Shown: piece by piece, positions 6,377 to 58,300 of the stretch
How positions within the stretch are numbered: position 1 is the first letter of the stretch
Layout: each line of letters begins with the position of its first letter
Assembly: GCA_965221575.1 (NCBI GenBank)
Contig: CBDCSM010000007.1
Span: forward strand, 84,358 to 148,357
Reading direction: 5' to 3'
DNA length: 64,000 nucleotides
Source: Paracoccaceae bacterium
Lineage (GTDB): Bacteria; Pseudomonadota; Alphaproteobacteria; Rhodobacterales; Rhodobacteraceae
The notes under the pieces: generated by a model
What the model saw: only the letters and a program-made list of their open reading frames with translations
Told to the model about the DNA's origin: nothing
Database searches by the model: none
Program-made: the position numbers and the translations under genes

Positions 6377-7578
6377 CCGGGGTCCGGCCAGCACTCCGTC
6401 TGGCCAAAGCAGTTTTCGATTGTCTCGACTTCCGGGTTGCCCCGGGAAACACCCGAGACACCGACTGTGAACGCACGGGTAACGAAAGCCTGCCCGCGAA
6501 AACCGAATACCACGCTGTCGCCTGTTTTCGGTTTCACCTGCCCCGTGCAATCGATCATGCCGTAATAGTCGATGGACGACGGTGACGGAATTTCCACGCT
6601 TGCGAGCGCTTTGGGAGCGGTCGTGGGTTCGTCGGAAACGATTGCCTTTACATCGTAGTCAGGAAAAACCGGATCGATATAGAGCCCGCCGCCAAAACAG
6701 TATGCCCTGTCGCCGTGCAGGTGGGACACCTCGGTCAGGTAGAGGACGGCAGGCTTTTCAGGCAGATCTTCCATCGCGTGCAACGGAGTCGTGCCATGCA
6801 GGCCATTGCCGGGTTCGCATTGCGTTGCACCGGCGTCGGCCAGAGCATCCAGCACGATCGACGAGGTTGTGCCCGGCGCGTTTATCTCCACGTCCCGCCG
6901 TCCGGCTTTCGCCAACTCGTCCGCCGCTCTTTCGAGTGTCGAAAGGTTCGGCGTCGGGGAAACCTTTCGCGTCCTTTCGTCGAACAGAAGCGCCGGAAAT
7001 GTGGTGATGCCCGCGAAATGCGCTCCCGCCAGCCCGTCGATCCGGTCCGCAACGGACACGATCTCGTCCGCCGGGTATCCGCCTTCGTGACCCCGGTAGA
7101 AGATATCACCGTCGGTCAGGATCCGCGCGAGCAGAGCCTGGTCGCGACCAGCCGCGGCCGAGGCGCGCGCGGCTTCGGACGCCTTCGTGTCCCCAAAAAC
7201 TGTCCAGAAGTCAGGCGCGATCCGGGCGGATGCCGGATCGGCCTCGAAGCGGGGCACCTGAACGAGATGGCCGAGGTGACCTGTCTTCAGTCCTGCCCGG
7301 TCGCAGGCCACCGCGCATGCCATGTCGACCGCGACGGCGCGGTCAATACCTGCGCGCAATACCGCCCGGCAAAAGCCGCTGTTGCGCCCAACCTGCTTCG
7401 TCATCGCGAATACTTTCAGGCCGCGCCTCGTAGCCTCTGCCTTGAAAAGGCGCGAATTTTCCTCGACCGCGTCAAGATCGAGAACATACGAATTGGCGGG
7501 GATCTTGCCCTCGCGGTGCAGCCTTATGGCGGCTTCGACGAGTCGCGGGTTCCGCCGGCTGAGAACATCGAGAAACAT
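6370..7578 (-). CDS. YhfX-like PLP-dependent enzyme (alanine-racemase-fold, putative amino-acid racemase)
   Basis: From MFLDVLSRRNPRLVEAAIRLHREGKIP... the protein resembles E. coli YhfX over its whole length as I recall that sequence (AMTKQVGRN, GHLGHLVQVP, FPALL, SSIDYY). The upstream 99 codons of the tracked ORF overlap the permease gene. Confidence 0.65.
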   Translation of the reverse strand: MFLDVLSRRNPRLVEAAIRLHREGKIPANSYVLDLDAVEENSRLFKAEATRRGLKVFAMTKQVGRNSGFCRAVLRAGIDRAVAVDMACAVACDRAGLKTGHLGHLVQVPRFEADPASARIAPDFWTVFGDTKASEAARASAAAGRDQALLARILTDGDIFYRGHEGGYPADEIVSVADRIDGLAGAHFAGITTFPALLFDERTRKVSPTPNLSTLERAADELAKAGRRDVEINAPGTTSSIVLDALADAGATQCEPGNGLHGTTPLHAMEDLPEKPAVLYLTEVSHLHGDRAYCFGGGLYIDPVFPDYDVKAIVSDEPTTAPKALASVEIPSPSSIDYYGMIDCTGQVKPKTGDSVVFGFRGQAFVTRAFTVGVSGVSRGNPEVETIENCFGQTECWPDPGC

Positions 7579-8546
7579 CGCGCCATCTCCGATCGTTTCA
7601 ATTCGTGCAGCGAGATCGCCACGGCCACCAGGATGATCAGGCCACGCACGATCATCTGGTCGGAAACTGCAAGCCCCATGAGTATGAGACCGTTGTTGAG
7701 CATACCCATCAGGAGCGATCCGAAGAGTGCCCCTATGATCGTGCCCTTCCCGCCTTTGAGCGCCGTACCGCCGACTATGACGGCGGCGATCACGGTCAGG
7801 AGATCGCTTTCTCCAAGCGTGTATTTCGCCGCTTGCAGGCGGCCGGCATAAAGCAGGCCCGCGAGGCCAGCGCAACCGCCGCTGATCGCAAGCACGAGAA
7901 GACGAATTCTGGTCACCCTGATGCCGGACGCCTGGGCAGCATCCGCATTGTCGCCGGTCGCGATCACATGGGCGCCAAAAGGCGTTTCCCGATAGACCAG
8001 GTGCCCAACGATGACGGCGCCCAGCGTCCAGAAGATGAGTGACGGAACGCCAAAGAGCGAACCGGAGCCAAAAATGCCCGTGAAGGAATCATTAATGACG
8101 GGGATCGATCGCAGATCGGTCATGGAACGGGCAACGCCCGCAAACAATCCGAGCGTCGCCAGCGTGACCAGGAAGGACGGCAGGCGCAGCCACGCCACCA
8201 TTGCGCCGTTAAAGAAGCCGATCGCCAACCCGGCGCCCAGCCCGGCCAGGATCCCGAAAAGCATGGAATGGTTCTGCATCACTACGGCGGCCGACAGCGC
8301 GGACACGGCAGTGATCGAGCCGAAAGACAGATCGATTTCGCCGGCCGAAAGCACGAAGACGAAGCCGATCGCCATGACCGTCGCAGGGGCGGTCTGCAGA
8401 ACGATGTTGGACAGATTCCGCGTAGTCAGGAAACCGTCATCATGAAGTGTAAAGGCGAAAAACAGGAAGATTGCGAGAAACCCGGCATAGATCACGCCAC
8501 CTTGCAGGTCACGTCCTCTCGCAATCGCTGACAGCCAACGGATCAT
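7524..8546 (-). CDS. ABC sugar transporter permease (ribose-type)
   Basis: 340 aa, polytopic. Carries GEIDLSFGS and C-terminal motifs typical of RbsC-like permeases. Confidence 0.8.
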   Translation of the reverse strand: MIRWLSAIARGRDLQGGVIYAGFLAIFLFFAFTLHDDGFLTTRNLSNIVLQTAPATVMAIGFVFVLSAGEIDLSFGSITAVSALSAAVVMQNHSMLFGILAGLGAGLAIGFFNGAMVAWLRLPSFLVTLATLGLFAGVARSMTDLRSIPVINDSFTGIFGSGSLFGVPSLIFWTLGAVIVGHLVYRETPFGAHVIATGDNADAAQASGIRVTRIRLLVLAISGGCAGLAGLLYAGRLQAAKYTLGESDLLTVIAAVIVGGTALKGGKGTIIGALFGSLLMGMLNNGLILMGLAVSDQMIVRGLIILVAVAISLHELKRSEMARCFSMFSAGGTRDSSKPP

Positions 8547-42523: not shown

Positions 42524-43198
42524 ATGGACGCATTTGAAGGTCGGGTTGCACTAGTGACAGGTGCATCGCGGGGCTTCGGATTCGCAGTCGCCACGGCCTT
42601 CGCGAGCCGCGGTACCCACGTGATTTCGGTCGGACGAACAGTCGGCGCGCTCGAATCCCTGGATGATCGAATTCGGGAATTGGGCGGAAGCACGACCCTC
42701 GTGCCGCTCGACATTTGCGACGCGGATGGAGTCGGACGCCTCTGCGGTGAAATCCGGAAACGGTGGCAACAACTGGATTTCTGGGTTCACACGGCGGTTC
42801 ACGCGCCTCCGCTCTCGCCACTCGCTCATTCGTTTCAACGCGACCTGACCAAGTGCCTTGAGATCAACGTCGTTGCGGTCTCAGGATTGATTGGCGCAAT
42901 CACGCCGATGCTGACGCCCAGGACAGGGACAATCATACACGTTGACGATCAAGTTCACGGTGGAAAGTTCCATGGCGCATATTCGGCATCAAAGGCAGCA
43001 CAACGCACTCTCTTCGAAACATGGCGAGACGAGGCCGCGTTCGGCCATGAGCGTTTGCTGACATTCTCTCCTTGTCCAATGCCTACTGGCGTAAGGGCAA
43101 TGTTTTATCCTGGTGAGGATCAATCTTCGTTGAATTCACCTGACCGACAAGCTGAGGAATTGATGTTTCAAATCAGCATCATGTTTTCAACGTCATAA
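42524..43198 (+). CDS. SDR family oxidoreductase
   Basis: ALVTGASRGFGFAVA Rossmann motif and YSASKAA catalytic motif. The ATG at 42524 follows the purF stop. Confidence 0.75.
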   Translation: MDAFEGRVALVTGASRGFGFAVATAFASRGTHVISVGRTVGALESLDDRIRELGGSTTLVPLDICDADGVGRLCGEIRKRWQQLDFWVHTAVHAPPLSPLAHSFQRDLTKCLEINVVAVSGLIGAITPMLTPRTGTIIHVDDQVHGGKFHGAYSASKAAQRTLFETWRDEAAFGHERLLTFSPCPMPTGVRAMFYPGEDQSSLNSPDRQAEELMFQISIMFSTS

Positions 43199-43662
43199 AC
43201 TAAGCTTCGCTTTAAAAAATTTTTCATCCCAAAACGCCGCTTTCCGATCGAAGGACCCACTGTTTTGACGATCTGTGTTGCGTCAAATCCAGCACGCCGA
43301 TCCACGGCGGAAAATGCCGATCGGTGAACTACTGGCACCACATTACCTGAAAACATGCACTTTTGTCTCTCTCTCTCTGGAACGCAGGATCTCGCAAGGA
43401 TGAAGTCACAAAATTGCAGGATAAATTTGTGAGGCGTTCTCTATTGAGAGTGAAAATCATGAAACGACTTGCTTTGCGCCGTCCTTCAAAGGAGGTCACG
43501 CCCCATGTCGAGAAGAGTACCCGGTACCGTGCGCACACGGCAAACCCTTAACCGAAGTTTGACATTCGCAAAAAAAGGTGATTGTTTTTCAGTGGCTTGT
43601 GCCGACTGAACCGGCGGTTATGGCACTACAAGTCCGTGCCCGGACATGATGTCACCGACCCG

Positions 43663-44331
43663 TCATGCAACCATCCTCCGCTTCTTCCCGGGCTCGGGAT
43701 CAAGACCGAGTGCCCGATAGATCTCCCGTTGCCGGGGCTCCGCCCGGGTCGCCTTGCGGATGTGAATGACCCGTCCGTCGGCACGACGGAAACAGGCGGT
43801 GACCCGGATCTGGCCCGAAAGAATGTCCCGCAGCGTTCTCCAGCTCGCCGTCTCGCCATGAGCCCGAAGGCGGCTGCGAATGACCTGAACCAGCTGGTAG
43901 GCCAGAACGCTGATGAACAGGTGACCGTCGGACCGGACCTGCTTGCGGTGATACACGGGACGCAGACCCAGTTCGGATTTGAGCGAACGGAACACCGATT
44001 CCACATCCGTCAACATGGAATAGGTCCGCCACAGGGTCTCCGCATCCCAGTCGAGCTGGTTGGTGCGCAGGCAGTAGACGCCGGGATGGGTGAGCATGGT
44101 GCCGCTACGCGGTGTCCGCGTCCAGATGAGCCCGATCGCCTTTTCGGCATTCTCCGGATCGGTGACGACGTCGATACTGTAGTGCTGGCCAGCGCCGCGG
44201 CTCTTCTGCCGGATGCGTCCGATCCGTTGCCAGACATAGGCGACCTGCTTGCGGGTACGCGGTCGTGACAACCCGTCGTGCAGCTTCTGCAACTCGTTCT
44301 CGAAGCGCGTCATGAAGCGTTCGGTGATGCC
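43663..44331 (-). pseudogene. IS1634-like DDE transposase, C-terminal fragment
   Basis: ...ITERFMTRFENEL...YCLRTNQLDWDAETLWRTYSMLTDVESVFRSLKSELGLRPVYH.... It continues fragment 50633-51093 exactly once the IS21 element and one ATGCC copy are removed. Confidence 0.75.
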
Positions 44332-44524
44332 TGCCAAATTTCACCAACGTACCACCCGAATTTCATCCAACGTAGCCACCCAATTTCACCATGGTAGCCA
44401 CCCGGAGCGAAGCGACGCGATCAAGCTGAATTCGGCAAGCAGATCTCCTTTTCTGTTCCCGCCTCGAGGTTATTCCCCCGAAGGCCCTTTTTCAAATCCA
44501 TATTGAATGGATTGTTGTTGTTGT

Positions 44525-44658
44525 CCTGTGGAGCCTGTGGGCGAGAAGCCCGCGAGTGTGGTCAATGCGGTGGGCGAGGCGCCAGCCTCGTCCACGGCTT
44601 GTCCACACGTCCCGCAGGGCGCGGGCTGGCCCGAAGGGCTCGTCCACAACTCCACAGG
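44525..44658. repeat. 134-nt extended imperfect hairpin in the istB-to-terminus spacer
   Basis: CCTGTGGAGCCTGTGGGCGAG...GTGGGCGAGGC-GCCA-GCCTCGTCCAC...CTCGTCCACAACTCCACAGG. Nested complementary blocks were read directly from the sequence. Confidence 0.6.
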
Positions 44659-44753
44659 ACCCCTCCCGACCGATGCAGGGTTGCGTCTCGGCTCGCCGCC
44701 TCCGGCGGCGGCGCCGATTCCGCGTGGCGAAGCGCGGCCCCTTCTTTCGTCGC

Positions 44754-45509
44754 TCATTTTCCGGCCTCGGCGCTGTCGGCGCGCATTGATGTGCCGTGCA
44801 ACGCGAACCGGATCGCGCCATGGACGAGGCGGTCGAGTATGGCGTCCGCGACTGTCGGCTCTGCGACTTTCTGATGCCAGTCGGGCACCGGCAACTGGGA
44901 GGTGACGATCACCGAGCGGCGATCGAAGCGGTCGTCGAGGATTTCCAGCAGGTCGCGCGCCCGGGCCGCGTCGACGGGTGCCAGGCCCCAGTCGTCGAGG
45001 ATGAGGACGTCGAGCCTGGCGAGATCGCGGTAGAGCTTGGGAATGCTCCCTTCGCCATGGGCGATCCGTAGATTGGTGAGCAGTCGCGGGACGCGCAGGT
45101 ACTGGGCCTGGAAGCCTTCGAGACATGCCTTGTGGGCGAGCGCGCAGGCGATCCAGCTCTTGCCCGTGCCACACGGGCCGGTGATCAGGATGTTGGCGCC
45201 GCTTCGGATCCAGCTGCAGTCGCCGAGGCCAAGCACGACGCTGCGGCTGAGGCCACGGGGTCGTGTGAGGTTGATGTCCTCGAAGCAGGCGTCCTGGTGG
45301 CGCAACTGGGCCTTCTTGAGGCGCCGCTGAAGGGCGCGCGAGCGACGCTCGACCACCTCGCGGTCGATCAACAGTGCAAGTCGGTCCTCGAACGGCATGT
45401 CGTCGAGATCGTGGCGCGCCATTTGCTCCTGGAAGGCGGCCAGCATGCCCGGCAGGCGCAGTGAGGCGATGCGCTGGGTGAGCGGGTGCAGGATGGCAGT
45501 GTCGGTCAT
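44754..45509 (-). CDS. istB: IS21-family helper ATPase IstB
   Basis: 251 aa. Walker A GPCGTGKSW, Walker B LILDDWG. Its start overlaps the istA stop. Confidence 0.85.
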   Translation of the reverse strand: MTDTAILHPLTQRIASLRLPGMLAAFQEQMARHDLDDMPFEDRLALLIDREVVERRSRALQRRLKKAQLRHQDACFEDINLTRPRGLSRSVVLGLGDCSWIRSGANILITGPCGTGKSWIACALAHKACLEGFQAQYLRVPRLLTNLRIAHGEGSIPKLYRDLARLDVLILDDWGLAPVDAARARDLLEILDDRFDRRSVIVTSQLPVPDWHQKVAEPTVADAILDRLVHGAIRFALHGTSMRADSAEAGK

Positions 45510-46288
45510 CTGTAATACTCCGGTCCTCTGATATTCGAATGGTTGATGGGTGCAGTCTCGGGTTCCGGCTCGTCGACGAGATCGGTTCCGGTCCGCAGGA
45601 TGTTGTCGAGGCCGCGCCAGGTCCTGGTGCCGAGATCCAGCGCGTAACGGCAGGCGTTATCGAGGCGATCCGGCCCATGGGTCTTCGCCAGGCGGAGCAC
45701 GCCGTAGCAGGAGCGGAAGCCGAATTCCGGATTGTGATTGCGTTCCAGGATCGTGGTGACAAAGGCGTAAACGTGGGGACCGATGTCGCGTGCACGATGT
45801 TCGAGTTGTGTGCGGGTGTTCTCGACATCGGCGCGCTGGTGCGCCTCGGGCTGATGCTCCTTGAGCGTGGTGGCACGCCCCCTGGCATCGCTGCGCAGAT
45901 GGCTTGCGATCTGTTTGCCGCGGTAGAACACGTCGATCATCCGGCCGCGCAGGCGGACATCGACCTTCTTGCGGGAATAGTTGTGGGGCACGGAATAGAA
46001 ATGGCGGTCGATGGCAATATGGTAGTCGCGATGGACAGTGTTCTCGCGCCACACCGTCCGCTGCCAGCGCTGGTCCGGCAGCGGCTTCATGTGTGGGACA
46101 TCGACGCTTTCGAACCGGTTGAAGCGGTTCTCGCCCGTGCCGTCGGCGTAGGGTTTCCGGTTGACCTTTCGCACCTGGGCTGCAATTGCCCGGTTCAGCG
46201 ATGCCAGGTCATGGAAAACATGTTTGCGCAACGGCGCCAGGACCCGGCGGCCGGCCAAAAGGACTCCATTTTCGACCAGTGCCTTGTC
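45506..46288 (-). pseudogene. istA: IS21-family transposase IstA, C-terminal fragment
   Basis: The true IstA sequence starts at DKALVENGV...APLRKHVFHDLASLNRAI.... Upstream residues of the tracked ORF come from the inserted element. Confidence 0.8.
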
Positions 46289-46290
46289 AG

Positions 46291-46617
46291 TTGTTTCCAA
46301 ATGCGGTTGGTTCCGCGGTTGCGAACGAGTTTCGGGACGTTCGCATAACGCACCGGTTCCATCCGCTGCGGGGGCGTGCACTGCGGATCCACGACCGCGT
46401 GACGGTGCTCAATGTTCCGCTGGTTCGGCACCGTGTGGAGGGTCCGGCGGGTCCGGTCTTTGTCAGCGTTCCTGTTTCCTGGACGTCTCTTCGTCACGTG
46501 GATGATTTCGAACGCGTGTCCTCGGGCCGCAGCCTGCTGCGTTCGGACGATCTGGTGGCGCTTCGCGAACTTGTGGATTGCCTTCTGGCCGCGGTCGGGG
46601 ACCGTAATCAGAAATGA
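46291..46617 (+). CDS. Small conserved left-end ORF (orfL-A; possibly DUF5372-like), lacking its own ATG/GTG start in the integrated state
   Basis: ...VRITHRFHPLRGRALRIHDRV...VEGPAGPVFVSVPVSWTSL...LVALRELVDCL. It is homologous to the left-end ORF of cassette B. The only in-element start candidate is a TTG 2 nt from the element end. An in-frame ATG lies at the other end of the element (49694). Confidence 0.5.
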   Translation: MFPNAVGSAVANEFRDVRITHRFHPLRGRALRIHDRVTVLNVPLVRHRVEGPAGPVFVSVPVSWTSLRHVDDFERVSSGRSLLRSDDLVALRELVDCLLAAVGDRNQK

Positions 46618-46737
46618 TGGCGCTGTTTGATCATAAATTCGGGCGCTTTCGGCTTCCCCTTCCCGGCATTCCGGGGCACGGAGGACAATTTTATCCCGTA
46701 TTTAAAGGCTTTTCTGCGCAAATGCCGCGATCATGCC

Positions 46738-46767
46738 TTGACAGCGGTGGAGCAGGTAGCGTATTAT
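46738..46767 (+). promoter_or_regulatory. Candidate sigma70-type promoter (TTGACA-18 nt-TATTAT) inside cassette A
   Basis: Hexamers were read directly in an AT-richer patch about 35 nt upstream of the HTH gene ATG at 46800. Confidence 0.35.
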
Positions 46768-46799
46768 TTAGTGAACATATATCGGAAGAACGCGACCGC

Positions 46800-47270
46800 A
46801 TGGAAGACCAGCGCAAAAAGCAGGACCGGCTCAGGGAGGCCGGCACCCTCAACCGGACGCCGGAAAAGGTCGGCGATCCGGCGTTCGCCGCGGGCGACTT
46901 CTTCGATTCCCGCGACCTGCTCCAGGTTCGCTACGAGATGGTCCGGCTGGTCCGGAAGGGAGGCGCCACGCTCGCGCAGGCCGCGGAACGCTTCGGGGTC
47001 TCCCGCCCGACCTGCTTCCGCATGGTCAAGTCGTTCGAGCGTGGCGGGCTGCAGGAGCTGATCCCGGCGAAACGGGGGCCGCGCGGACCACACAAGATCA
47101 CCGCGGAGATGCTCCGCTTCGTCGAAGACCACAGGGAGCGGCATGGACGGGTGGGTGCGCGGCGGCTGGTGCGGATGATCGAGGCCGAGTTCGGCGTCAG
47201 GATCCATCCGCGCGGTCTCGAGAAGGCGCTCGGGCGGGATAAAAAAAAATCGCAGGAGCCCGGGCCATGA
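46800..47270 (+). CDS. Helix-turn-helix protein of cassette A
   Basis: 156 aa. HTH (ATLAQAAERFGVSRPTCFRMVKSF) followed by a second DNA-binding-like segment. An alternative upstream start at 46614 overlaps the orfL-A stop, but it spans AT-rich sequence that does not look protein-like. Confidence 0.65.
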   Translation: MEDQRKKQDRLREAGTLNRTPEKVGDPAFAAGDFFDSRDLLQVRYEMVRLVRKGGATLAQAAERFGVSRPTCFRMVKSFERGGLQELIPAKRGPRGPHKITAEMLRFVEDHRERHGRVGARRLVRMIEAEFGVRIHPRGLEKALGRDKKKSQEPGP

Positions 47271-47572
47271 TGCGCGCCGACGCGCCGCAGGTTTACGAGG
47301 GCTGGCGCCAGCTCTGGCTGTCGGGCGGCGACAGCAACGCGATCGCCGCGCTGCGCTACCACGGCCTGCGCCGTGCCCTGGTCATGGCCGGGGCCGCATG
47401 CAACCGCACCGGCCCTCGGCCGCCGCTGCCGTCGTCCGCCAACGTGGACCTGCCCGTCGCCAAGGCCGCGATCACCGAGGCCGCCAGCCAGGTCCGGCAC
47501 CTGCTGCGTGTTCCGACACCTCCCGCAAACGGCGGCACGACACGGGAATACGGGGAGAATCGTCATGTCTGA
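47267..47572 (+). CDS. Small hypothetical protein of cassette A
   Basis: 101 aa. Has an ATGA overlap with the HTH gene and an 8-nt overlap with the recombinase ATG. No family recognised. Confidence 0.45.
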   Translation: MMRADAPQVYEGWRQLWLSGGDSNAIAALRYHGLRRALVMAGAACNRTGPRPPLPSSANVDLPVAKAAITEAASQVRHLLRVPTPPANGGTTREYGENRHV

Positions 47573-49697
47573 AGCACAGACGCGCAAGATCGCACCGCAT
47601 CATCTGGAACGTGAGGCATGCCTCTACGTGCGTCAGTCCTCGCCTCGACAGGTCATGCAAAACACCGAAAGCACGCTGCGCCAGTACGGGCTGAGCCAAA
47701 GGGCGATGGCGCTGGGCTGGCCTGCGGAGCGTATCCGGGTGATCGATGACGACCAGGGCAAGTCGGGCGCCCACAGCGAAAACCGTGACGGCTTTCGCGA
47801 CCTCATGGGGAGCGTCGCAGCCGGCGATGTGGGTATCGTTCTCGGCCTGGAAGTCTCGAGGCTGGCCCGCGACAATGCCGACTGGCACCAGTTGTTGCGT
47901 ATCGCCGGCATCACCAATACGCTGATCCTCGACGAGACCGGCATCTTCGATCCCAACGACGTGAACGACAAGCTATTGCTCGGCGTGAAGGGGACCCTGA
48001 GCGAGTTCGAGCTTCAGGGGATCATGGCACGGCTGATCGGTGGCCAGCGCAACGCGGCTGCACGGGGCGCCCTGAAAATGATTTTGCCGATCGGCCTGGC
48101 CTACAACGACAGGGACGAGGTTGTGTTCAATCCCGACCGGTCGATCGTCGATGCCATCCGCCTCGTGTTCGACGGCTTTCGCCGCAGGGGTTCGGCGATG
48201 GCGGTGGTGAAGTGGATGCACCGGGAGAACATGACGCTGCCGTCACGTCCGCTGAGCGGTCCGACCCGCGGTGAGCTGCGCTGGGCCCTCCCGAGCTTTG
48301 CGCAAGTTGGCCGCATTCTCAAAAATCCCCGCTACGCCGGTGCGTTCGTCTACGGTCGACACCGTTCCCGGCGACAGGGTGACGGGACCACGACGTACCG
48401 GACCGTGCCGATGGACGAGTGGGAGGTCTGCATTCCCGGTGCTCATGCGGGATTCATCGACTGGGACGAATTCCTCCGCAATCAGGCCACCCTGGCGAGC
48501 AATGCCGCATCGTTCCTGCGGTCGGGCTCGCGCACTGCGGCACCGCGCGAAGGGGCGGCGCTCTTGCAGTCGCGGATACTCTGCGGCCACTGTGGGCGGC
48601 GCATGTTCGTGAACTACAGCCGCGCCGCCAGGGCGAACGGCGACACCCGAGCCCCGTATTACTACGTCTGCAAGGAAGACCTCGTCCGCTACGGTCGAAA
48701 GACCTGCCAGAGCATGCGCGGCGATCTGGTCGACATCGAGGTATCCCGCTTCGTGATTGAGGTGATGAACCGAAAGAACATCGACCTGGCACTTGCGGTC
48801 CAGGAACAGGTCCGTGCGGAGTTCGCCAGCGCCGATGCCCAGCGCTCCCGGCGCATCGAGGCCATGCGCTACGAAGCCGACATGGCGCGCCGCAGGTTCT
48901 TCGAGGTCGATCCCGCCAACCGGCTCGTCGCGGCTGCGCTCGAAGCCGAATGGAACGATCGGCTGCGTGTTCTGGAGGAGGCCTGTCAGGAGCGCGAAAC
49001 GCGCGCCGCGGCCCGCGATATCGAACTCTCCGAGCGCCAGGTGGAGCGCGTCAGGGAACTGACCCGGGACTTCGAGCAGGTCTGGCATGCTCCCGAGACC
49101 GGCAACACCGACCGCAAACGGTTGCTCGGGCTTCTGATCGAAGATGCGACGCTGACCCGGGACGGCTACGAGGTCACCATCGGTCTGCGCATGCGGGGCG
49201 GCAAGTGCCTGACACTCGAAACGCAGCTGCCGAGGCCGATCGCACTGATCCGCAAGACCCCTCCCGAAACCATCGCCGAACTCGACCGCCTGTTGGGGAT
49301 GCACACCGATGAGCGAACCGCGGAAGAGCTCAACCGGATGGGGTACAGAAACTGGAAAGGTGAGTGCTACACCGCCAAGCGCGTCCGCAGCACACGACAG
49401 ACATATGGATTGCCCAGCTATCGCGAGCGGGAAAGGAAACGGCTTCGTGACCAGGGCTTCGCGGACGCCGGGGAAATGGCTGATCGGCTCGGCCTCAACG
49501 AGGGAAGCGTCCGGAAAATGGGCAGGACCGCGGACGACCCGCGCGTGGAGCGAGCGGTCATTCGCACGGATGGGCGGACATATTGCATGTACAGGGCCAA
49601 CGGCCACGACGAATCGGCTTGCGGGGAGCCGGGAGACGACGGCATGATCCCGCAATCGACAGTGGAAATCCCAAAAGCGCAACAAGGTGCATCATGA
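47565..49697 (+). CDS. Large serine recombinase (cassette A)
   Basis: 710 aa from MSEAQTRKIAPHHLEREACLYVRQSSPRQV (catalytic Ser motif). Has a resolvase domain (GLEVSRLARD), a recombinase domain, a Zn ribbon (CGHCGRRM...YYYVC), a coiled coil and a long C-terminal extension. Confidence 0.85.
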   Translation: MSEAQTRKIAPHHLEREACLYVRQSSPRQVMQNTESTLRQYGLSQRAMALGWPAERIRVIDDDQGKSGAHSENRDGFRDLMGSVAAGDVGIVLGLEVSRLARDNADWHQLLRIAGITNTLILDETGIFDPNDVNDKLLLGVKGTLSEFELQGIMARLIGGQRNAAARGALKMILPIGLAYNDRDEVVFNPDRSIVDAIRLVFDGFRRRGSAMAVVKWMHRENMTLPSRPLSGPTRGELRWALPSFAQVGRILKNPRYAGAFVYGRHRSRRQGDGTTTYRTVPMDEWEVCIPGAHAGFIDWDEFLRNQATLASNAASFLRSGSRTAAPREGAALLQSRILCGHCGRRMFVNYSRAARANGDTRAPYYYVCKEDLVRYGRKTCQSMRGDLVDIEVSRFVIEVMNRKNIDLALAVQEQVRAEFASADAQRSRRIEAMRYEADMARRRFFEVDPANRLVAAALEAEWNDRLRVLEEACQERETRAAARDIELSERQVERVRELTRDFEQVWHAPETGNTDRKRLLGLLIEDATLTRDGYEVTIGLRMRGGKCLTLETQLPRPIALIRKTPPETIAELDRLLGMHTDERTAEELNRMGYRNWKGECYTAKRVRSTRQTYGLPSYRERERKRLRDQGFADAGEMADRLGLNEGSVRKMGRTADDPRVERAVIRTDGRTYCMYRANGHDESACGEPGDDGMIPQSTVEIPKAQQGAS

Positions 49698-49706
49698 AAC
49701 AAGAGA

Positions 49707-50459
49707 CTTGTCGCGCGGCTTCTTGACCCGCGCCGGCAAGCCCTCGACGCCGTAATGCTCAAGCAGATCGGCGTAGGTCTCGTTCAGGACCGGTTCGTAG
49801 CGTGACGGGGTCTTCACTGCTGCCTTGACGTTGTCGGGCACCGCAACCTGCGGCGCCCAGCCCATGTCTTCGAAACAGCGCACGTGAGAGTTGCACCAGT
49901 CATCGATCTTCTGGCTGAGGGTCGCTTCGGCGTAGACCCGACCCGAGACCCCCATCGAGGCGACGAACACCTGCGCGGCATGCTCAACCCCGTCGAGGAA
50001 CAGCGGGATGGTCGTGCCAGCGTAATCAACGAACAGCCGTTCGCCGGGACGGCGGTTCTGGCGCATCGTCACATCCACGCACGGCCGCCAGTCGCGGAAC
50101 CGGCGCGTCCAGGTCACATAGCTCATGCCGTCGGGATGGGTCTCGCGCCATTCCTCCCACAGCAATTTCAACGTCACGCCGCGGTCCGAAAGGTCGCTCT
50201 CAACCGTTGCCCAATCCACATCTTCGTCCGCAGGCCGAACCTGCCGCACCGGATAGAGCGCCGCCTCCAGCACCTCATCGTCCATGTCGGCCGCTTCCGG
50301 CCAACTCAAGCCCGAAGCCGCAAACCGCTCCAGGGTCTGTCCCACCGAGCGTCGGGCGAGACCGCAGTGGGTCGCGATCGCCCGGGCGCTGCGGCCCTCG
50401 TCAAAGTGAAATTCCAGTATCTTCCTGACTTTCCTCATGGGCAGCCTCTTCTGTGCCAT
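49707..50459 (-). pseudogene. istA: IS21-family transposase IstA, N-terminal fragment
   Basis: MAQKRLPMRKVRKILEFHFDEGRSARAIATHCGLARRSV... (HTH) through the DDE region (...LFVDYAG...) to ...PARVKKPRDK. The last 5 tracked codons and the stop come from cassette A. Confidence 0.8.
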
Positions 50460-50632
50460 TCCTTACTCCTCGGACTGATCGCAAAATCCGAGGTGTAAAC
50501 CGGCATCCTGATTCAAACCAAAGCCAGTCACCCCGAGGGGTGGCTACCATGGTGAAATCAGGCGGCTACCTTGAGTGAAATTCGGTGGCTACTTTCAGTG
50601 AAATTGGGTGGCTACTTTCGTGAAATTTTGCA

Positions 50633-51093
50633 ATGCCCAGCTCCTTCTCGGCCCGGGCCTCGGAGCAACAGAACAGGCGGAGCTCGGAAGCCTCCTCGTC
50701 GGTGACGGCCTGGATGTGGACCTTCCCGCGGGTGCGGGTCTCGATCGCCGTCGCCAGGTCGGGGTCGAAGTGGCGGACCCGTTCGCGACTGACCACGAGA
50801 TAGCGGTAGCCATTGTCGCGGAGCCAAGCGACGTTGTCCTCGGTGGCGACGCCGGCGTCCATCACCACCAGCGCATCCCGGGGTGCCGAAAGCCTGGTCA
50901 GCATCCCCTCCAGCGTGCTGCTTTCCTTGACGTTGCCGGGGAACACGTCCGAGCGCTGCACGAAACCGCTGCCGTCGAGAACCAGGCCCAGGGTCAGTAA
51001 CGGACAGTCGCTGCGCTTCTCCTTCGAGTGGCCACGCTGGGCCTTGGGCTGCTTGTCAGCCGCACCCTCGAAAAACGTGTTGGTCAGGTCGAA
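50633..51093 (-). pseudogene. IS1634-like DDE transposase, middle fragment
   Basis: DLTNTFFEGAADKQPKAQRGHSKEKRSDCPLLTLGLVLDGSGF...VVMDAGVATEDN...ARAEKELGI. Bounded by cassette B on one side and the IS21 element on the other. Confidence 0.75.
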
Positions 51094-51444
51094 CGAACTG
51101 CCATCTGACTGATCACCTCCATGTTGCATTTCTGTACGGATTCCGGGAGCGCCCCGCAACCCGTTGACATGATACTGTTTTCTTCATGTTGCCGCGCTCG
51201 GGCTTGAAACGCCTGTTCCTGGTTTACAACGTGCAACTGCCGAAATGCCCGCGATTGGGGCCCATGTTCGCCGGGTCCGGACCCGCCGACCCGGTGCGTC
51301 CCCCTCGCTTGAACGCCGGATCCTCGCCGAAAACCCGTACGACAGGGGATCCGACGGCGATTCCGCGCAGGCAGGGTCGCAAAATCGGCCCCGCAGGCGG
51401 GGTTTACGTCATGCAACTCCGGGGCCGCAGCCGGGATCACCGGG

Positions 51445-53631
51445 TCAGCCATCGCCTGCCTCCGGGGTCTCGAAAAGCGGAAGCCGGTCGTCGCCAAGCT
51501 GAACATACAATCCCTTGACTGAACCGCGGCGGATGTGCCGGGCCTTCAGCGCACCGGACCGGATCCGCTGCCAGATCACCTGACGGGACACGCCAAGACG
51601 TTTCATCGCCCTGTGAAGCGACACGAAGCCGGCCGGCGGTTCGTCGCAGAACTGGCTGCGCAACTCCGGCGTCATGCGGATCCGATAGGGTGCCCCGGAT
51701 GCCGGTTGTTCGGCCGGCACGATCCCTGCCCGGATCCAGCGGTAGAGCGTGCCGACAGTTGTTTGCAGTTCACGGGCCGCTTCGGCCACGCTGAGCAGGG
51801 GGGCGTTGGTGTCTCGCCTGTCGGCGCGCCAGGCCGGAATGTCGTTGCGCAGCCGCAACTGCCGGACGAGATACGCGGTGAACGCAAGCCCCTTGGCGGT
51901 GCGCCGCCCCTGGCGGTTGAGAATGATCGCCGTCCGGGCGTCCGGGTAATGCGCGGCCAGCCGGCGGACGAGCGCCACCGTGTCGATATCGTCACGGACC
52001 ACCGCCGGAGCCTGGTGCGAGGGCAGCTCAAACTCATCCGTCGCGCCCCCGTGCCAACGCACGAGGATCCGAATGACTTTCGCCGTCCCGTCGCGCCAGA
52101 GCATGACCTCCTCCACCAGGCAGGCCAGAAGACGCTTGCGGTCCCGGGCGGTGACAACGGGAGACTCCCAGAGCCGGGAGAGGCGCATGCCCAGGGCATT
52201 CAGCCGCGCCAGGGGCGGCGGTTCGGGACGGTCCCGCTGCGCCTGCTCCAGGGCGTCCCGGGCCGCGGCCAGGGCCTCCAGGGCCCGGTTCCAGTCGCGT
52301 TCGAGCGTATCGGCGACCAGGCGATTGTCGGGGTCCACCTTGCGATAGCGGCGTTCCGCAAGCGAGGCTTCATAGTTGCAGCGGTCAACGTCCAACCGCA
52401 GTGTCCGATGCGCCTCCTGGTCCTTTTGCTGCTGCTGCCTGAACGCCTCGGCCGCCGCCTCGATGCCGGACGCCGAAACCGCTTCAAGGAATGTGTCGCC
52501 AATCAGGGCATCGATGCGCTTGCCGCCGACCGTCATGCACGACCGTCGGTCGGCATCTCCGTTGCGTGGCGCGCAGATGTAGGTCCACGCCTTGCCGTAG
52601 GCGACGTTCATGGCGCGGCCGCAGTGACCGCAGACCACGCGACCCTGCAGCAGCGCCTTGCCTTCCCGCTCTGCGCCCCCCGTTCCCGATGCCGTCGAGT
52701 TCGCCGACAGCCGGTCCTGGATCTCAAGCCAGACCGGCCAGGGGACGTAACCCTCGTGATGATCCTTGATCAGGACATGCCAGTCATCCGGGCCAACCTT
52801 GCGGATGATGCGCCGGACCTGGTTGTCGTCGCCCAATACCCGCTCCGTCCGCTGGCGCCCGTAGACATAAGCGCCCCCCATGGCCGGATTGCGGAGAATC
52901 GAATGGACGCGCTCATAGCGGGCTTCGCTCCACACGACGGTGTCGCTGCCCGATTGACGGCTGGGAAGCCGGACCCCCTCATCCCGAAGCGCCTGGATCG
53001 CCTGGCGTGCCGAGCCGTGCGCCAGGAAACCGGAAAACACCCGGTCGATCGCATGCCGGACCTGCAGGTCCGGATCCTTGAGCAGCGAAGTCCCCTCCAG
53101 CACGTATCCGATCGGAATGTGGTGATACAATTCGCCGCGGGCGGCCTTGTTCCGGATGCCGCCCTGCAGGCGCGTCCGGATCAGGAAGGCTTCCGATTCC
53201 GAAAGCGTGCCCTTGATCGAGAGAACAAGATTGTCGTCATGGCGGGCCGGGGAATACACCTGCTCCCCTTCAACCAGCAGCGTATCCGTCATCCGGCACC
53301 AGTCGAGCAATTGAAACCACTCCACAGGATTGCGCGCCAGGCGACTGACCTCAAGACCGAAGACCGCCCCCACACGACCGCGCGCGACCGCATCGGCAAG
53401 CCGCGAAAAGCCGTCGCGTTCGCCCGCAAACGAACCCGACCGGCCCTGGTCCGCATCCACGGTCTCAATCAGGTCGTCGTGCCAGCCCAGGGCGCGCGCC
53501 TCGTTGGCCAGCGCGTACTGACGCTCCGTGGATTCCCGGTTCGCGTTGACCTGCGTCGGCGTCGATTGCCGGATGTAAATCAGGGCACGGCGTTCAAGGT
53601 GGCGGGCCGTGATCTTCTCGCCTGCGCTCAT
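51445..53631 (-). CDS. Large serine recombinase (cassette B)
   Basis: MSAGEKITARHLERRALIYIRQSTPTQV (catalytic Ser motif), GLEVSRLARN, Zn ribbon CGHCGRAM...YICAP, a coiled coil, and two C-terminal HTH-like segments. Its ATG at 53631 overlaps the upstream ORF stop (ATGA). Confidence 0.85.
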   Translation of the reverse strand: MSAGEKITARHLERRALIYIRQSTPTQVNANRESTERQYALANEARALGWHDDLIETVDADQGRSGSFAGERDGFSRLADAVARGRVGAVFGLEVSRLARNPVEWFQLLDWCRMTDTLLVEGEQVYSPARHDDNLVLSIKGTLSESEAFLIRTRLQGGIRNKAARGELYHHIPIGYVLEGTSLLKDPDLQVRHAIDRVFSGFLAHGSARQAIQALRDEGVRLPSRQSGSDTVVWSEARYERVHSILRNPAMGGAYVYGRQRTERVLGDDNQVRRIIRKVGPDDWHVLIKDHHEGYVPWPVWLEIQDRLSANSTASGTGGAEREGKALLQGRVVCGHCGRAMNVAYGKAWTYICAPRNGDADRRSCMTVGGKRIDALIGDTFLEAVSASGIEAAAEAFRQQQQKDQEAHRTLRLDVDRCNYEASLAERRYRKVDPDNRLVADTLERDWNRALEALAAARDALEQAQRDRPEPPPLARLNALGMRLSRLWESPVVTARDRKRLLACLVEEVMLWRDGTAKVIRILVRWHGGATDEFELPSHQAPAVVRDDIDTVALVRRLAAHYPDARTAIILNRQGRRTAKGLAFTAYLVRQLRLRNDIPAWRADRRDTNAPLLSVAEAARELQTTVGTLYRWIRAGIVPAEQPASGAPYRIRMTPELRSQFCDEPPAGFVSLHRAMKRLGVSRQVIWQRIRSGALKARHIRRGSVKGLYVQLGDDRLPLFETPEAGDG

Positions 53632-54085
53632 CGTCCATCTCCGCTGCAGCAACCTTCGTCATCAGTTGCGACAGTTGCGTCACAAACGCCGCCCGGCTCT
53701 CCTGCGGAAACCTCTGCCACCGCGCCAGACGTTCCTCCCAGGCCAGAAGCGCCAGAAGCGGCGGTTCCCGATCGTGGCCCTGTGATCCCAACCCGATCCT
53801 CCAGTGTCCTGATCCGTTCAAGCAGGGCGAAAAATGCGTCAAGCGTGCCGCGGGTGCAAGCCACCGGGCGCGCGCATCCGCCCAGCGTCGTCCAATCCGA
53901 CGGAATCCGGAAACGCTGACCGTCCGGCATCTCCACATCCAGAAAAACGCGGCCGCAGGCGTGCCTGCGAACCTTGTTAACCTTCAGTTCCCGGGTATCG
54001 TACGGGTGCTTGAAACGCTTGAGAAAAACCGGCTCCGACGGCAGGCGCCGGGAAAGCCCTCGAAGTGTATTAGTCTGTTGCCCCT
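53628..54085 (-). CDS. Left-end ORF of cassette B (orfL-B), homologous to orfL-A, with no in-element start upstream of its conserved motif
   Basis: The frame is open from the element end: ...VFLKRFKHPYDTRELKVNKV...VEMPDGQRFRIPSDWTTL...LDAFFALLERIRTL.... The first canonical in-element start (GTG 53936) lies after the conserved RF.HP motif. The C-terminal 50 codons are low-complexity, and a second frame overlaps them. Confidence 0.5.
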
Positions 54086-54777
54086 TCGAAAAGCGTCACC
54101 GTGTGTCCCAGTGAGAACAGGTCCGTCACCCGCTCGAACATGTGGGTCTCGATCTCCCGGCGCCGCGACAGCAGGGCATCCGAGGCCCGGTACAGGCGCA
54201 TCATGTCCATGGTCTCGAAATCGACATCGAGCAGTTCGCCGAGCGCACTCCGCTCGCAGAGCCAGCGCCAGGTCGCACGCTCCGAGCCCGGCACCGCCAT
54301 GCGGCCGATGATCGACCCCATGGCCACGGCCCGCGAGCGGCGGTTGAAACCCAGGCGCACAAGAAGTTCCCCGATGCCGAGTTGTTCCATCGCCCACAGC
54401 CCCACGTGCTCGACACCGGCAGAACGCGGGCGCACCATCTCCAGGGACGTCACGTCCACCGTTTCCATTCTGGGACCGGTCCCGGCGCCTGCGACCGGAG
54501 GCGAACGGCTGACCAGCCGGGCGGCGATGCGCTGCGCTTCCGCCTCGACCTCATCGGGCCAGGGGAGCGGCAGAAGTGTCTCCTGGCGCCCGATGAGCTG
54601 GGTGATGCGCGCGCACAACAGGCGCCAGTGTTTCTTCTCCACGGGGAAATTGCTTCCGAGGTTGAGGAGGGTCCTCTGCCTGACCCTGTCGCCCTGTCGT
54701 TCGTTGCGGACGAGGCGGTAGGAGAAGTACTCGGTTCCGTCCTCTGTGGTGCGTGTTTTGGCGCGCCTGATGAACAT
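54086..54777 (-). pseudogene. IS1634-like DDE transposase, N-terminal fragment
   Basis: MFIRRAKTRTTEDGTEYFSYRLVRNERQGDRVRQRTLLNLG... through ...DLFSLGHTVTLF. The frame then runs into cassette B and stops. Confidence 0.75.
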
Positions 54778-55334
54778 GGCGTGAGTTTATCATGTTGTGG
54801 GGAGTGCTGGAATCCCCTTTCTTTCAGATTATGGCACCACGATCCACTGGCACGAATACAATATCAGGTAAAAACAGAGCGTTGGAGGATACGGGAAGTC
54901 AAAAATACCCCGAAATCGGCAGAATCGCGCCAAAAAATGTCAAACATGGGTTAACAAATTTATGGAAGGCTACCTGACCTCGCCGGACGGCCACGCCTCC
55001 GCACCTGAAATCCTCCTGAATGAACGAGCCTTAAAAAGGCCTGATGACCTGCAACCCTACTTGAGCCGCAGGAAAAACAGCAGACTTCGGACTTGACGAG
55101 ATGGGACCCAAGGGAACAGAAATGAGAGGTGACGAACAGAGACACTGGATGACTTCTAGGCAAATGTTGGTCGAATTCGCCCTGGTTCATGCGCTGCATG
55201 ACCTGTGAATCCTTCCCGGCCAGATTTCTCCTTTTCGGGATTGATACGCCTGATTTTGCGTCCGTCCGGTCACAAGTGCGGCGCATCAGGGCATCAGGAA
55301 TCTCGGACGTTTTTTTGACGGAGCAAACATCGCG

Positions 55335-58300
55335 ATGATGGATTCCAACTTGCCTGCCTGTCCTGACGAAGAACCGCAAGACCCCACCGAAGCACGTTCG
55401 CCGGACTTTTCCGAATTCGGGGCGCCGGTGGCGATTGTCGGCATGGCCTGCCGATTCCCCGGGGCAGACGGCCTTTCCGCTTTCTGGCGCCTTCTGGAAG
55501 CCGGTGGAAACGCGGTGCAGGAGGGCCTTCCAGGGTCCGGAATCGGGCGCGTGGGCGCCATGTTCCCGGACGATACTGGACAGATCGACGCCTGCCGTTT
55601 TGGCGCCTATCTTGACGATCTCGACCGGTTTGACGCCGCCTTCTTCCGCATTTCTCCGGTCGAAGCACAACTGCTGGATCCGCAGCAACGGCTGATCCTG
55701 GAGATAAGCTGGCGGGCTCTCGAAGATGCCGGCATTGATCCCGAACTGCTGAAAGACAGCCCTGCTGGCGTCTATGCGGGCATCAGCAACAACGACTACC
55801 GGGGGTTGATTCTGGAGGCCAGCGAGAATGCCGGGCCGGCCGAGCCAGCCGCCAGCCTGTATGCGGTCACCGGCACATCCCTCAATACGGCGATCGGCCG
55901 GGTTGCGTTTGCTCTCGGGTTCGGCGGGCCGGCGATGGCGGTGGACACTGCCTGCTCGTCATCGCTGGTCGCGATGCACCAGGCGGTCACGGGCTTGCAG
56001 CGGGGAGATGCTGACCTCGCCCTCGCAGGCGGTGTGAACATCATTCTTTCCGGCCGGCTTCTCGAATTCAGGGCCAATGCGGGAATGCTGTCGCCCGACG
56101 GCCAATGCAAGACTTTCGATGCCTCCGCCAACGGATATGTCAGGGGCGAAGGCTGCGGCATCGTCGTCCTGAAACGACTCGCTGACGCGGAAGCCGACGG
56201 CGACCGCATCTGGGGCGTGATCCGGGGTACGGCGCTGAACCAGGACGGGGCAAGTCCCGGACTGACGGTTCCTAACGGGGCGGCGCAGGAACGTGTGATC
56301 GCGGCGGCGCTCGGGAGGGCCGGTGTCCAAGCTTCGGATATCGACTACCTGGAGGCGCACGGAACGGGCACCGAGGTGGGCGACCCGATCGAGATCAAGG
56401 CAACGGCCGCGGTTTACGGGCGCGATCGCGATGCCTCCTGCCCGCTGCTGATCGGATCGGTAAAAACCAACATTGGCCATCTGGAGTCGGCGGCAGGGGT
56501 AGCAGGGGTAATCAAGACCGTGCTTGCGATGAACCGCGGCATCATCCCCAGGCACCTCCATTTCAATGACCCGAATCCCGAGATGGACTGGGAGCGGCTG
56601 CCATTGCAGGTGACGTCCTCACCGACGCCGTGGCCCACCAACGCGGACCGCCCGCCGCTGGCAGGCGTCAGTGGTTTCGGATGGTCGGGGACAAACGCCC
56701 ATGTCGTGCTTGAAGGATACGTCCCGCCCGATGGTGCCACGCGCTCGCCTGACCCGGACAGTTGGATCGCCGGCGCTCCGAAACAGATCGCGGTTTCACA
56801 GCTGATACCAGCCGCGCCACGAAAGTCGAAGGACGGCCTAGCGCCGCGCACGACGCGCCTTCTGCCGCTCTCCGGAAAGTCGGATGGAGCGCTGCGTGAT
56901 TCGGCCGGGCGTTATCTCGCCTGGCTCGATGAAAAGGAGGACCCGCTTGCGGCCGGGAGCACGGGAGCCGATCCGCTGCTTTCCGACATGGCCTGGTCGG
57001 CCAGTATCGGGCGAAGCCATTTCGGCTACCGCGCGGGCTTGGCATTCCGGGACGTTGCGTCACTGCGCGAGGGTTTGCGGGCGATTGCCGATACGGACGA
57101 AGGACCATCTGCATCGCGAAATGCCTCCATGGTGGCGTTCGCTTACACCGGACAGGCCAGTCAATGGCCGGGCATGGGCGCTGTACTCTATGACAGCGAA
57201 CCCGTCGTGCGCGCCGTGCTTGACAGGTGCGATGACGTGCTCAGGCAAATGCGTGGCGCCTCGCTGCTCGCCGTGATGTTCGGTCGTCCCGGAGCCGCGG
57301 GAGACCTCGACGATCCGCAGTGGAAACAGCCTGCGATTTACGCGCTCGAATGCGCCCTCACGGCGCTGTGGTCGAGCCACGGCATCCGGCCGGACGTCGT
57401 GCTCGGACACAGCCTGGGAGAGGTCGCCGCAGCGAATGCCGCGGGCGCGCTCGAACTGGAGGATGGTTTGCACCTTGCGGCGGCGCGGGGAACGTTGGTC
57501 GGCGCCCTGCCGGGTGATGGAGCCATGGGGGCGGTATTCGCGCCAGCCGCGCGCGTTTCGAATGCGTTGGAAGAGCACAACGCGGCGACTCAAGGTATCG
57601 GCCTCTGCATCGCCGCCGACAACGGAGCGCACCAGGTCATCAGCGGTCCGGCTGAGGAGATCGTGGCGATCCTCGAACAGCTGGAGGCGGCCGGAATTCG
57701 GGTCGCACGGTTGCGCAAGAGCCCCGCCTACCACAGTGCCATGATCGAGCCCGCGCTGGACGAACTGGAGGCAGCCCTTTCCCGGATTCCCTCAGTGCCG
57801 CCGAAGATTCCCTTCGTCAGCAATCTGAGTGGACAGACGCTCCGTTCTGGCCAAACGCTGGACGCGGCTTACTGGCGCCAGCAGATGCGCGCACCGGTGG
57901 CGTTCCGTACCTGTGTCGAGACCCTGGCAGGGCTTGGCGTGGACGCGGTTGTCGAGATCGGTCCGCACGCCGTGCTCGGGCCTATGATCTCGATGGCCTG
58001 GCCGGAATCCGGCAGGGTCACCGAGCCGGCGGTCGTGTCGAGTCTCAGGAGACCGGCAACTGGCGAAGAACCACCGGCGCCAGGGTCAGGCGGTGGTTTT
58101 GTGGAAGCCCTTGCCGGCGCGTATGAGGCCGGGCTTCCTCTACGCTTCGAAGGCCTTTTCGCGGGTGAATCACGGCGACGCATTGCGCTGCCAGGCTATC
58201 CGTTTCAGCGCGAACGCTACTGGGTCGAGGCCCCCAGGCGGCGGCGGTCGGGCACCGGCCACCCCTTGCTGGGAGTGCGCCACGAGTCCGCGAGCGGCGA

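Follow-up and report, generated by a model that had tools for sequence, protein, structure and literature searches.

The window, a 64,000-nucleotide stretch of a Paracoccaceae bacterium genome (assembly GCA_965221575.1, contig CBDCSM010000007.1, positions 84,358 to 148,357 of the forward strand), contains an IS21-type insertion sequence (IS) whose istA gene is interrupted by a compact unit, here called cassette A, that encodes a large serine recombinase (LSR). The host IS21 itself sits within an IS4/IS1634-like element, an intact copy of which is present on contig C6 of the same genome. The insert is bracketed exactly by the hexamer CTTGTC, as the initial annotation had stated, with 3418 bp between the two hexamers and 3424 bp when one hexamer is included, and it lies antisense to istA at ...KKPRD/KALVE of the IstA protein (a slash marks the insertion point here and below). 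Joining the istA halves with one hexamer copy yields a 509-aa IstA that aligns with the intact 516-aa IstA of ISRsp2 from pNGR234a with no gap across the junction (...KKPRDKALVENG and ...RKPRDKGRVEGA, respectively), in agreement with the proposal that istA is cut exactly and that one hexamer copy restores its frame.

Cassette A comprises four plus-strand genes: a DUF5372 gene body (orfL), a helix-turn-helix (HTH) gene, a small helical gene, and the LSR gene (Table 1). All four open reading frames (ORFs) had been listed in the initial annotation, together with their overlaps, and both stand: Pfam domains are present in three of the four products; an ATGA at 46614-17 and another at 47267-70 each combine a stop with a start codon; the LSR start codon, ATG 47565, precedes the small-gene stop at 47570-72; and the LSR stop at 49695-97 is 9 nt before the right hexamer. 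The LSR has an N-terminal resolvase-type catalytic domain, followed by a Recombinase domain and then a zinc ribbon. It matches PHROG integrase (3e-46), is homologous to the SPbeta LSR SprA (PDB 9dxh; the alignment covers residues 67-375), and retains the motifs YVRQSS and EVSRLAR, which are invariant in four family members; by analogy with gamma-delta resolvase and phiC31, we take their residues to be catalytic. The closest similarity of the HTH protein is to N-terminal DNA-binding regions of IS630 and IS481 transposases (NCBIfam 8e-14 and 4e-13, well short of the curated cut-off in each case); it also resembles PHROG transposases, and the element may have borrowed a transposase DNA-binding domain. 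The small protein has no match in Pfam, NCBIfam, or PHROG; its pattern YE.LR..AL...G.AAW...LA.MAL is kept in 25 relatives. The predicted structure of DUF5372 is a small SH3-like beta-barrel with two helices (predicted local distance difference test score, pLDDT, 78). A protein atlas gave no functional lead for DUF5372 or the small protein.

The mobile unit is confined to these 3424 bp and these four genes, with no phage or transfer genes, and a remnant of a prophage or of an integrative conjugative element was rejected on these grounds. A Pfam scan of cassette A reveals no DDE gene, a repeat finder reveals no terminal inverted repeats, only an imperfect att dyad centred on TT, and an Rfam scan of 43000-55500 reveals no RNA families. 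Cassette A thus shares with a classical IS its size, its lack of cargo, and its multicopy state, and lacks the terminal inverted repeats and the fixed-length duplication made by a DDE-type transposase.

Table 1. Features of cassette A and of the IS21 that carries it, in window coordinates.
Feature	Position	Strand	Remarks
Mobile element (cassette A)	46286..49709	+	3424 bp with one copy of the TT core; bounded by empty site, limits of identity with L007, second copy, and end motifs of 59 relatives
Left junction CTTGTC (attL core)	46283..46288	.	TT at 46284-85; CTT is the minus-strand Lys codon of IstA ...PRD-K
Right junction CTTGTC (attR core)	49707..49712	.	TT at 49708-09; GTC is the minus-strand Asp codon of IstA
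DUF5372 gene body (orfL)	46288..46617	+	Pfam PF17342, 4e-9; ribosome-binding site (RBS), start codon, and first five codons at the other end, 49684-49709
Sigma-70-like promoter TTGACA-18-TATTAT	46738..46767	+	11/12 match; the single strong one in the cassette; points into HTH, small gene, and LSR
HTH gene	46800..47270	+	Probable start ATG 46800, 156 aa; frame open from ATG 46614, which overlaps the DUF5372 stop; Pfam HTH_29/28/23/32
Small helical gene	47267..47572	+	101 aa; no known family
LSR	47565..49697	+	710 aa; Pfam Resolvase 2.4e-16, Recombinase PF07508 2.6e-13, Zn_ribbon_recom PF13408 6.2e-8
Right-end arm of attP	49684..49709	+	AAGGTG, Shine-Dalgarno-like; ATG 49694-96 overlapping LSR stop TGA 49695-97 (ATGA); then 11 nt, TT
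IS21 istA, N-terminal part	49713..50459	-	249 aa; ends ...KKPRD+K
IS21 istA, C-terminal part	45506..46288	-	260 aa; Mu-transpos_C_2 domain; starts (DK)ALVENG
IS21 istB	44754..45509	-	Intact; Pfam IstB_IS21, 1.8e-64
Host IS21	44332..50627	-	TG...CA ends; 5-bp target duplication ATGCC at 44327-31 and 50628-32

The search for further copies and empty sites that the initial annotation had suggested yielded an empty site, a second genomic copy, and a close relative in a different IS21. Specifically, public assemblies were compared with 45900-50100. A contig in metagenome run X5 passes directly from 46282 to 49707 and lacks exactly 3424 bp (six letters fit either side), and a contig from run X6, representing a second organism, bridges both IS21 flanks. 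The second copy in the same genome (C7:153871-160166) lies in an IS21 with its own 5-bp duplication, GTCAC. Between the two genomic copies, the IS21 arms differ by 15 substitutions and by indels of 1 bp and 23 bp, with the nearest differences at 46250 and 49728, and the 3430-bp cassette region is 100% identical; if differences were evenly spread, the chance of finding none in the cassette would be P ~8e-6 by our own arithmetic. The diverged arms and identical cassettes indicate that the cassette either entered both IS21 copies separately or was renewed after their divergence. In a Paracoccaceae metagenome-assembled genome (MAG; locus L007), the element is 95.5% identical over 46272-49712 only, its flanks belong to a much more diverged IS21 (~69% identical in istB), and the same codon is struck; pieces of contigs in run X12 likewise end at 46272 and 49712 and then run into an L007-type flank. 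With identity ending at the proposed ends, conserved ends, an empty site, and no DDE gene, the earlier description of a compact IS-like unit driven by an LSR, not by a DDE enzyme, is upheld. The candidate explanation that the four genes are a passenger gene set of IS21 was rejected, given the cassette-only identity between copies, the independent insertion in a different IS21, and the empty site.

A more elaborate version of passive carriage holds that the cassette entered IS21 once, that the composite was duplicated by IS21 transposition with IstA supplied in trans, that the cassettes were homogenised by gene conversion, and that cassette A is no longer self-mobile here. IS21 transposition did happen, since each copy occupies an IS21 with complete ends and an intact istB and has its own 5-bp duplication, and the lack of an empty host-type IS21 in the genome is what such a history would leave. 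The same genome, however, contains no intact istA of the host type to act in trans; the arm differences reach to 33 and 16 bp from the identical cassette, and conversion tracts would need to end at the element ends; all four ORFs are intact; and both an empty site and a 95.5%-identical element in another IS21 were found. We therefore consider this history unlikely. Moreover, because each IS21::cassette copy has its own target duplication, the pair is not the product of one composite transposition. A relaxed attB pattern scan of the genome gave 11 matches, none inside a transposase gene, so the genome offers no obvious free target.

Relatives of cassette A are numerous. A tblastn search with the LSR gave matches in 586 plasmid records, the majority of them rhizobial and some containing as many as 14 places, and a pattern scan of one genome per GTDB species identified 543 relatives. 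From these 543 we retrieved 80 loci, from Proteobacteria, Actinobacteria, Acidobacteria, Chloroflexi, and others, and added the units of pNGR234a. The order and spacing of the HTH and LSR genes are kept in ~75 of the 80 loci, element lengths are 3289-3424 bp, and many of the retrieved relatives are stand-alone contigs of ~3.3 kb, as expected of collapsed repeats. The window element has the family's hallmarks: four genes in order on one strand, within 3.3-3.4 kb; conserved ends; and an antisense position at a Lys or Asn (K/N) codon. An LSR tree groups the window enzyme with L007, L008, and L009-L011 in a long-branched clade of their own, which shares ~45% identity with the main family. Plasmid relatives of cassette A are found at the protein level only: a megablast of the cassette against PLSDB plasmids gave no matches. 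For the host IS21, the nearest plasmid IstA proteins are only ~42% identical.

The reconstructed targets reveal a common position in transposase genes. We rebuilt attB in 51 loci; in 41 of these, a long minus-strand ORF is interrupted in phase 0 at a codon for Lys or Asn. Among 40 ORFs abutting the right end, 27 match Pfam rve, and all of these matches stop at profile position 100-102 of 102, at most 6 aa from the junction; several further loci are IS21 by a Mu-transpos_C_2 domain on the other flank. The junction peptides are ...PRD/K(G/A)KVE in IS21, ...GNxWD/NAxAESF in IS3, and PQA/KGRVER or WQ/NPxAER in other types. The attB DNA consensus encodes (D)(K/N)(G/A)xxE, with a Glu codon four codons after the K/N codon, and by analogy with IS3 and IS21 transposases we equate this Glu with the E of the DDE triad. 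Comparison thus places the apparent crossover, for most members, four codons ahead of the one for the catalytic Glu in DDE transposases of the rve type (IS21 IstA, IS3 OrfB, and others). Element orientation is constant, antisense to the target in the reconstructed junctions; antisense insertion at this motif splits the catalytic triad and yet is exactly reversible.

The motif, not the IS family, appears to define the target. In particular, element pairs that are 96-99.7% identical lie in different ISs: L004 in IS21 and L022 in IS3; L058 in IS3 and L059 in IS21; L070 in IS3 and L076 in a transposase of the KGRVER type; and L075 in IS256 and L077 in IS3. Target types are also interspersed on the LSR tree. 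Near-identical elements in different IS families, together with interspersed targets, indicate that the recombinase reads a short DNA motif common to these genes and not one locus; exceptional members lie in IS256 and IS110 transposases, at look-alike sequences. Judged by these comparisons, the choice of IS21 at the window locus is no accident, a point absent from the initial annotation: the family aims at a transposase motif.

The same comparisons bear on a second alternative, a programmed gene-interruption element like fdxN (XisF) or skin (SpoIVCA), in which regulated excision would switch istA on and would not serve spread. In NCBIfam, the LSR matches XisF best (1.9e-23, well short of the curated cut-off), and excision would restore istA exactly; nonetheless, the family is multicopy, is spread over many IS families and phyla, has near-identical members at unlike targets, and behaves as a selfish element, being patchy and often a collapsed repeat contig. 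DUF5372 is found in 6 of 400 sampled genomes of the phylum, including none of 19 from the window's own family, and such patchiness fits horizontal spread. A dedicated switch for istA is accordingly very improbable.

The ends of the family are conserved on both sides. At the right end, 68 of 75 scanned loci have (A/G)(A/G)GGTGCA, 2-3 nt, ATG or GTG, 11 nt, and TT; at the left end, TT is followed by 10 nt and then by a CAAC/CAAA-TGC motif (46284-46305 in the window). Across 48 distinct junction pairs, TT alone is present at both junctions; where the repeat is longer (CCTT in many loci, CTTGTC here), the extra letters stem from local similarity of attP to attB. The initial annotation had posited a crossover core shared by attL and attR; a shared core does exist, and the 59 relatives reduce it from the whole hexamer to TT. 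Serine integrase attP sites have a 2-bp asymmetric core flanked by an imperfect dyad. In the window attP, the dyad arms match at 15 of 24 positions, versus at most 9 for shifted controls, and the family mean is 10.5 of 24, versus 5.7 for shifted controls. The comparative evidence points to recombination at a 2-bp core between a dyad-symmetric attP and an attB, and the family probably integrates by conservative site-specific recombination at the TT core. That the hexamer is instead a 6-bp target duplication made in trans by a DDE-type transposase, with the serine recombinase only a resolvase or cargo, would also fit one CTTGTC in the empty site and two around the insert, and we dismiss it almost entirely, because the element has no DDE gene, the repeat length varies with TT alone constant, the ends form an imperfect dyad centred on TT and not terminal inverted repeats of the DDE kind, and the orientation relative to the target is always the same.

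Joining the ends of cassette A completes a gene. The sigma-70-like promoter lies between the DUF5372 stop and the probable HTH start, and a promoter matching at least 10 of 12 positions occupies the same DUF5372-HTH gap in 24 of 56 relatives (perfect in three), against a background maximum of mostly 7-9. DUF5372 consequently lies upstream of the promoter in the integrated element, and its frame is open to the left element end. In the joined ends, the right end supplies AAGGTG, ATG, and five codons in frame with DUF5372, giving an ORF of 115 aa. The ORF across the joined ends is 101-121 aa in 58 of 59 loci, versus mostly 5-30 aa when the frame is offset by 1 or 2 nt. Because the left arm contains no counterpart of the Shine-Dalgarno-like motif, the dyad alone does not account for this motif. 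Once circularised, the element would have its four genes coupled in translation around an unbroken ring, DUF5372 coming last.

We propose the following cycle. In the integrated state, the promoter in the DUF5372-HTH gap would drive the HTH gene, the small gene, and the LSR gene. The LSR, with one accessory protein as directionality factor, would recombine attL with attR, giving a 3424-bp circle and restoring istA. In the circle, the joined ends would form the dyad-symmetric attP, and the transcript would continue past the LSR stop (ATGA) into DUF5372, whose RBS and start codon would be complete only there. The DUF5372 protein, made only from the circle, might bias the reaction toward re-integration or shut expression down. 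The LSR would then pair attP with the motif in another rve-type transposase gene and exchange strands at TT/AA. Transposase genes are multicopy, dispensable, and mobile, and so would offer a safe, self-spreading landing site.

Taken together, cassette A is very probably an autonomous, cargo-less 3424-bp element that uses its LSR as transposase and belongs to a widespread DUF5372-HTH-small-LSR family that parasitises transposase genes, with a proposed life cycle through a circle of this kind. More tentatively, and at a little short of even confidence, we suggest that cassette A may be an IS hyperparasite with a topological switch, in which DUF5372 would be made only from the excised circle and would steer the LSR toward re-integration as an anti-excision or integration factor, and that the family, by disabling IS21, IS3, and related transposases across many phyla, may shape IS load.

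Several observations weigh against these interpretations. On the side of mobility, no circle junction or excision product for the strain was seen in assembler contigs, which drop rare forms; an empty copy of the host-type IS21 is absent from the genome itself, and no near-identical IS21 that could serve as an empty site is present among 200 same-family genomes; and the zero divergence between the two cassettes could stem from gene conversion and not from separate insertions. As to targets, some relatives lie in non-transposase genes, namely ssb (the sister clade) and citrate synthase (two Desulfopila loci). As to the accessory genes, the roles of DUF5372, the HTH protein, and the small protein are ones that we infer only: searches of Pfam, NCBIfam, and PHROG with the three, and a structure search with DUF5372, gave no match to a known recombination directionality factor; the DUF5372 model has no significant match in the PDB, only generic SH3-like barrels (E > 0.03); and the predicted structure of the small protein, helical and of low confidence, is too poor for a structure search. 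Finally, part of the right-end motif may be kept as a recombinase binding site and not as a translation signal, and translation of DUF5372 might also begin internally (at TTG 46291; in other records PGAP predicts versions of 88 aa), which weakens the strictly circle-only expression that we infer.

The nearest recorded relative of cassette A is a unit of pNGR234a from Sinorhizobium fredii NGR234, which carries two identical copies and one decayed copy. We take the two copies to be y4bA-D and y4pH-K, the unit to be NGRIS-4, and NGRIS-4 inside an IS21-like element to be NGRRS-1. Perret et al. in 1997 (J Bacteriol 179:7488) reportedly described NGRIS-4 as a repeated IS with all copies in other ISs, and that account is said to include no recombinase mechanism, codon-level rule, or split gene. 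The pNGR234a units match the window element in all four genes and their order, in the end motifs, and in the TT core. Specifically, the y4p copy (3320 bp) interrupts an IS21 istA at ...RPRD/KAKVE, adjoining istB, which is the architecture of the window, and the y4b copy lies at PQA/KGRVER of another transposase. The window element differs in that its LSR is 46-48% identical to theirs, that it is ~100 bp longer, that all its genes overlap, and that it belongs to the separate long-branched clade. The initial annotation had placed the category outside the standard IS families, which is right insofar as PGAP does not call the element an IS and needs amending insofar as the same four-gene unit occurs twice on pNGR234a. 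A full-text literature search, in which the 1997 paper was represented by its title only, gave no description of a recombinase mechanism, target rule, split gene, or transposase-gene lifestyle. The family is thus almost undescribed.

Other systems share single features with cassette A. The clostridial elements Tn4451/Tn4453 (TnpX) and Tn5397 (TndX) have an LSR as the sole excision and insertion enzyme, a circular intermediate, and a 2-bp core, and the circle junction of Tn4451 was reported by Lyras and Rood in 2000 to create the tnpX promoter. Tn4451-type elements and cassette A have in common an LSR as transposase and, as proposed here for cassette A, gene expression that would depend on the joined ends; Tn4451-type elements, however, have resistance cargo, a GA core, and no transposase targeting, whereas cassette A has no cargo, has a TT core, and is IS-sized, and the junction of cassette A completes a coding sequence (RBS, start codon, and five codons), whereas that of Tn4451 completes a promoter. 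SPbeta SprA, skin SpoIVCA, fdxN XisF, Bxb1, and phiC31 have the same enzyme class and domains, a 2-bp asymmetric core, and precise gene restoration by excision; in these serine-integrase systems an accessory factor sets the direction, and the same would be expected of cassette A. Unlike serine-integrase prophages, cassette A has no phage genes, is multicopy, uses a motif common to several transposase families, and has three small accessory genes. IS607 resembles it in being IS-sized, having a serine recombinase, and lacking terminal inverted repeats and target duplications; the IS607 enzyme is a small serine recombinase with an N-terminal MerR-like HTH, usually accompanied by TnpB and with little target specificity, whereas that of cassette A is a 710-aa LSR, which gave no match to the IS607 model NF033518. 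The distinctive combination in cassette A is the absence of cargo, IS size, multiple copies, aim at the transposase genes of other elements, and a gene split across the ends.

These results add a class of cargo-less, IS-sized, LSR-driven elements that IS families and standard annotation do not recognise, although such elements occur in genomes and plasmids by the hundred, in hosts ranging from Proteobacteria to Actinobacteria and Acidobacteria. The target rule would make them mobile elements specialised in parasitising, and reversibly inactivating, other mobile elements, which bears on the control of IS load and on the IS nests of plasmids. A gene completed only by circularisation would be a simple way to sense the integrated versus the free state. 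Retargeting to ssb or citrate synthase would provide a natural series for changes in serine integrase specificity, of interest for genome engineering.

The elements in ssb and citrate synthase have features of their own. In the sister clade (L009:3724-7889, L010, and L011), the LSR is 76% identical to that of the window, the elements are ~4.17 kb, and the insertion is in ssb at ...DESYIN/KQTGERVDKTEWH. The L009 element carries its own complete ssb (7173-7805, minus strand, ending DDDIPF), in which the equivalent of the site reads ID/RNSGNRV; this element-borne ssb, which lacks the target site, looks like a spare of the essential gene destroyed by insertion. L044 and L054 (Desulfopila MAG) are 89% identical elements, both in citrate synthase at about the same profile position (114/123), and constitute another lineage retargeted to a housekeeping gene.

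Other LSR elements are present in the genome of the window. Cassette B (51093-54094, minus strand) is a different LSR element that precisely interrupts the transposase gene of the outer IS4/IS1634-like element, whose intact copy is at C6:80652-82755. Its LSR (735 aa) is 38% identical to that of cassette A and has a C-terminal excisionase-type HTH; the LSR gene is preceded by an ORF (53628-54095) that contains a DUF5372-like ...IPSDWTT... segment, and there is no separate HTH gene. Another repeat, of ~3.5 kb, has three copies that are 96-97.5% identical (C14:~670312-673783, C6:~238.5-242.3 kb, and C12:~622.8-626.2 kb), with an LSR 34% identical to that of cassette A, and further LSR paralogues are found at C14:685918-687681 and at C2:145603-146901, the latter adjoining a weak DUF5372 match. 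The ~3.5-kb repeat and these paralogues indicate that the genome hosts several LSR-element lineages.

The two IS21::cassette copies are inverted and ~19 kb apart. Between them lie cassette B, a portion of the outer IS, and the beginning of a large polyketide synthase (PKS) gene (window 55335 onward); such an inverted pair could promote inversion of the PKS segment. Of the two indels in the second copy, the 23-bp one is a tandem duplication within repeated terminal motifs at the IS21 end (C7:~160100-160166, corresponding to about window 44360), and the 1-bp one is a deletion at the equivalent of window 50456, near the istA start. Within the long spacer that separates istB from the IS21 end there is a ~185-bp repeat (44495-44680), overlapping a hairpin seen in the initial annotation, that is also present in the otherwise diverged L007 IS21 (92% identical) and at C6:223874-224048 (93% identical) and is possibly a small mobile or structured insert.

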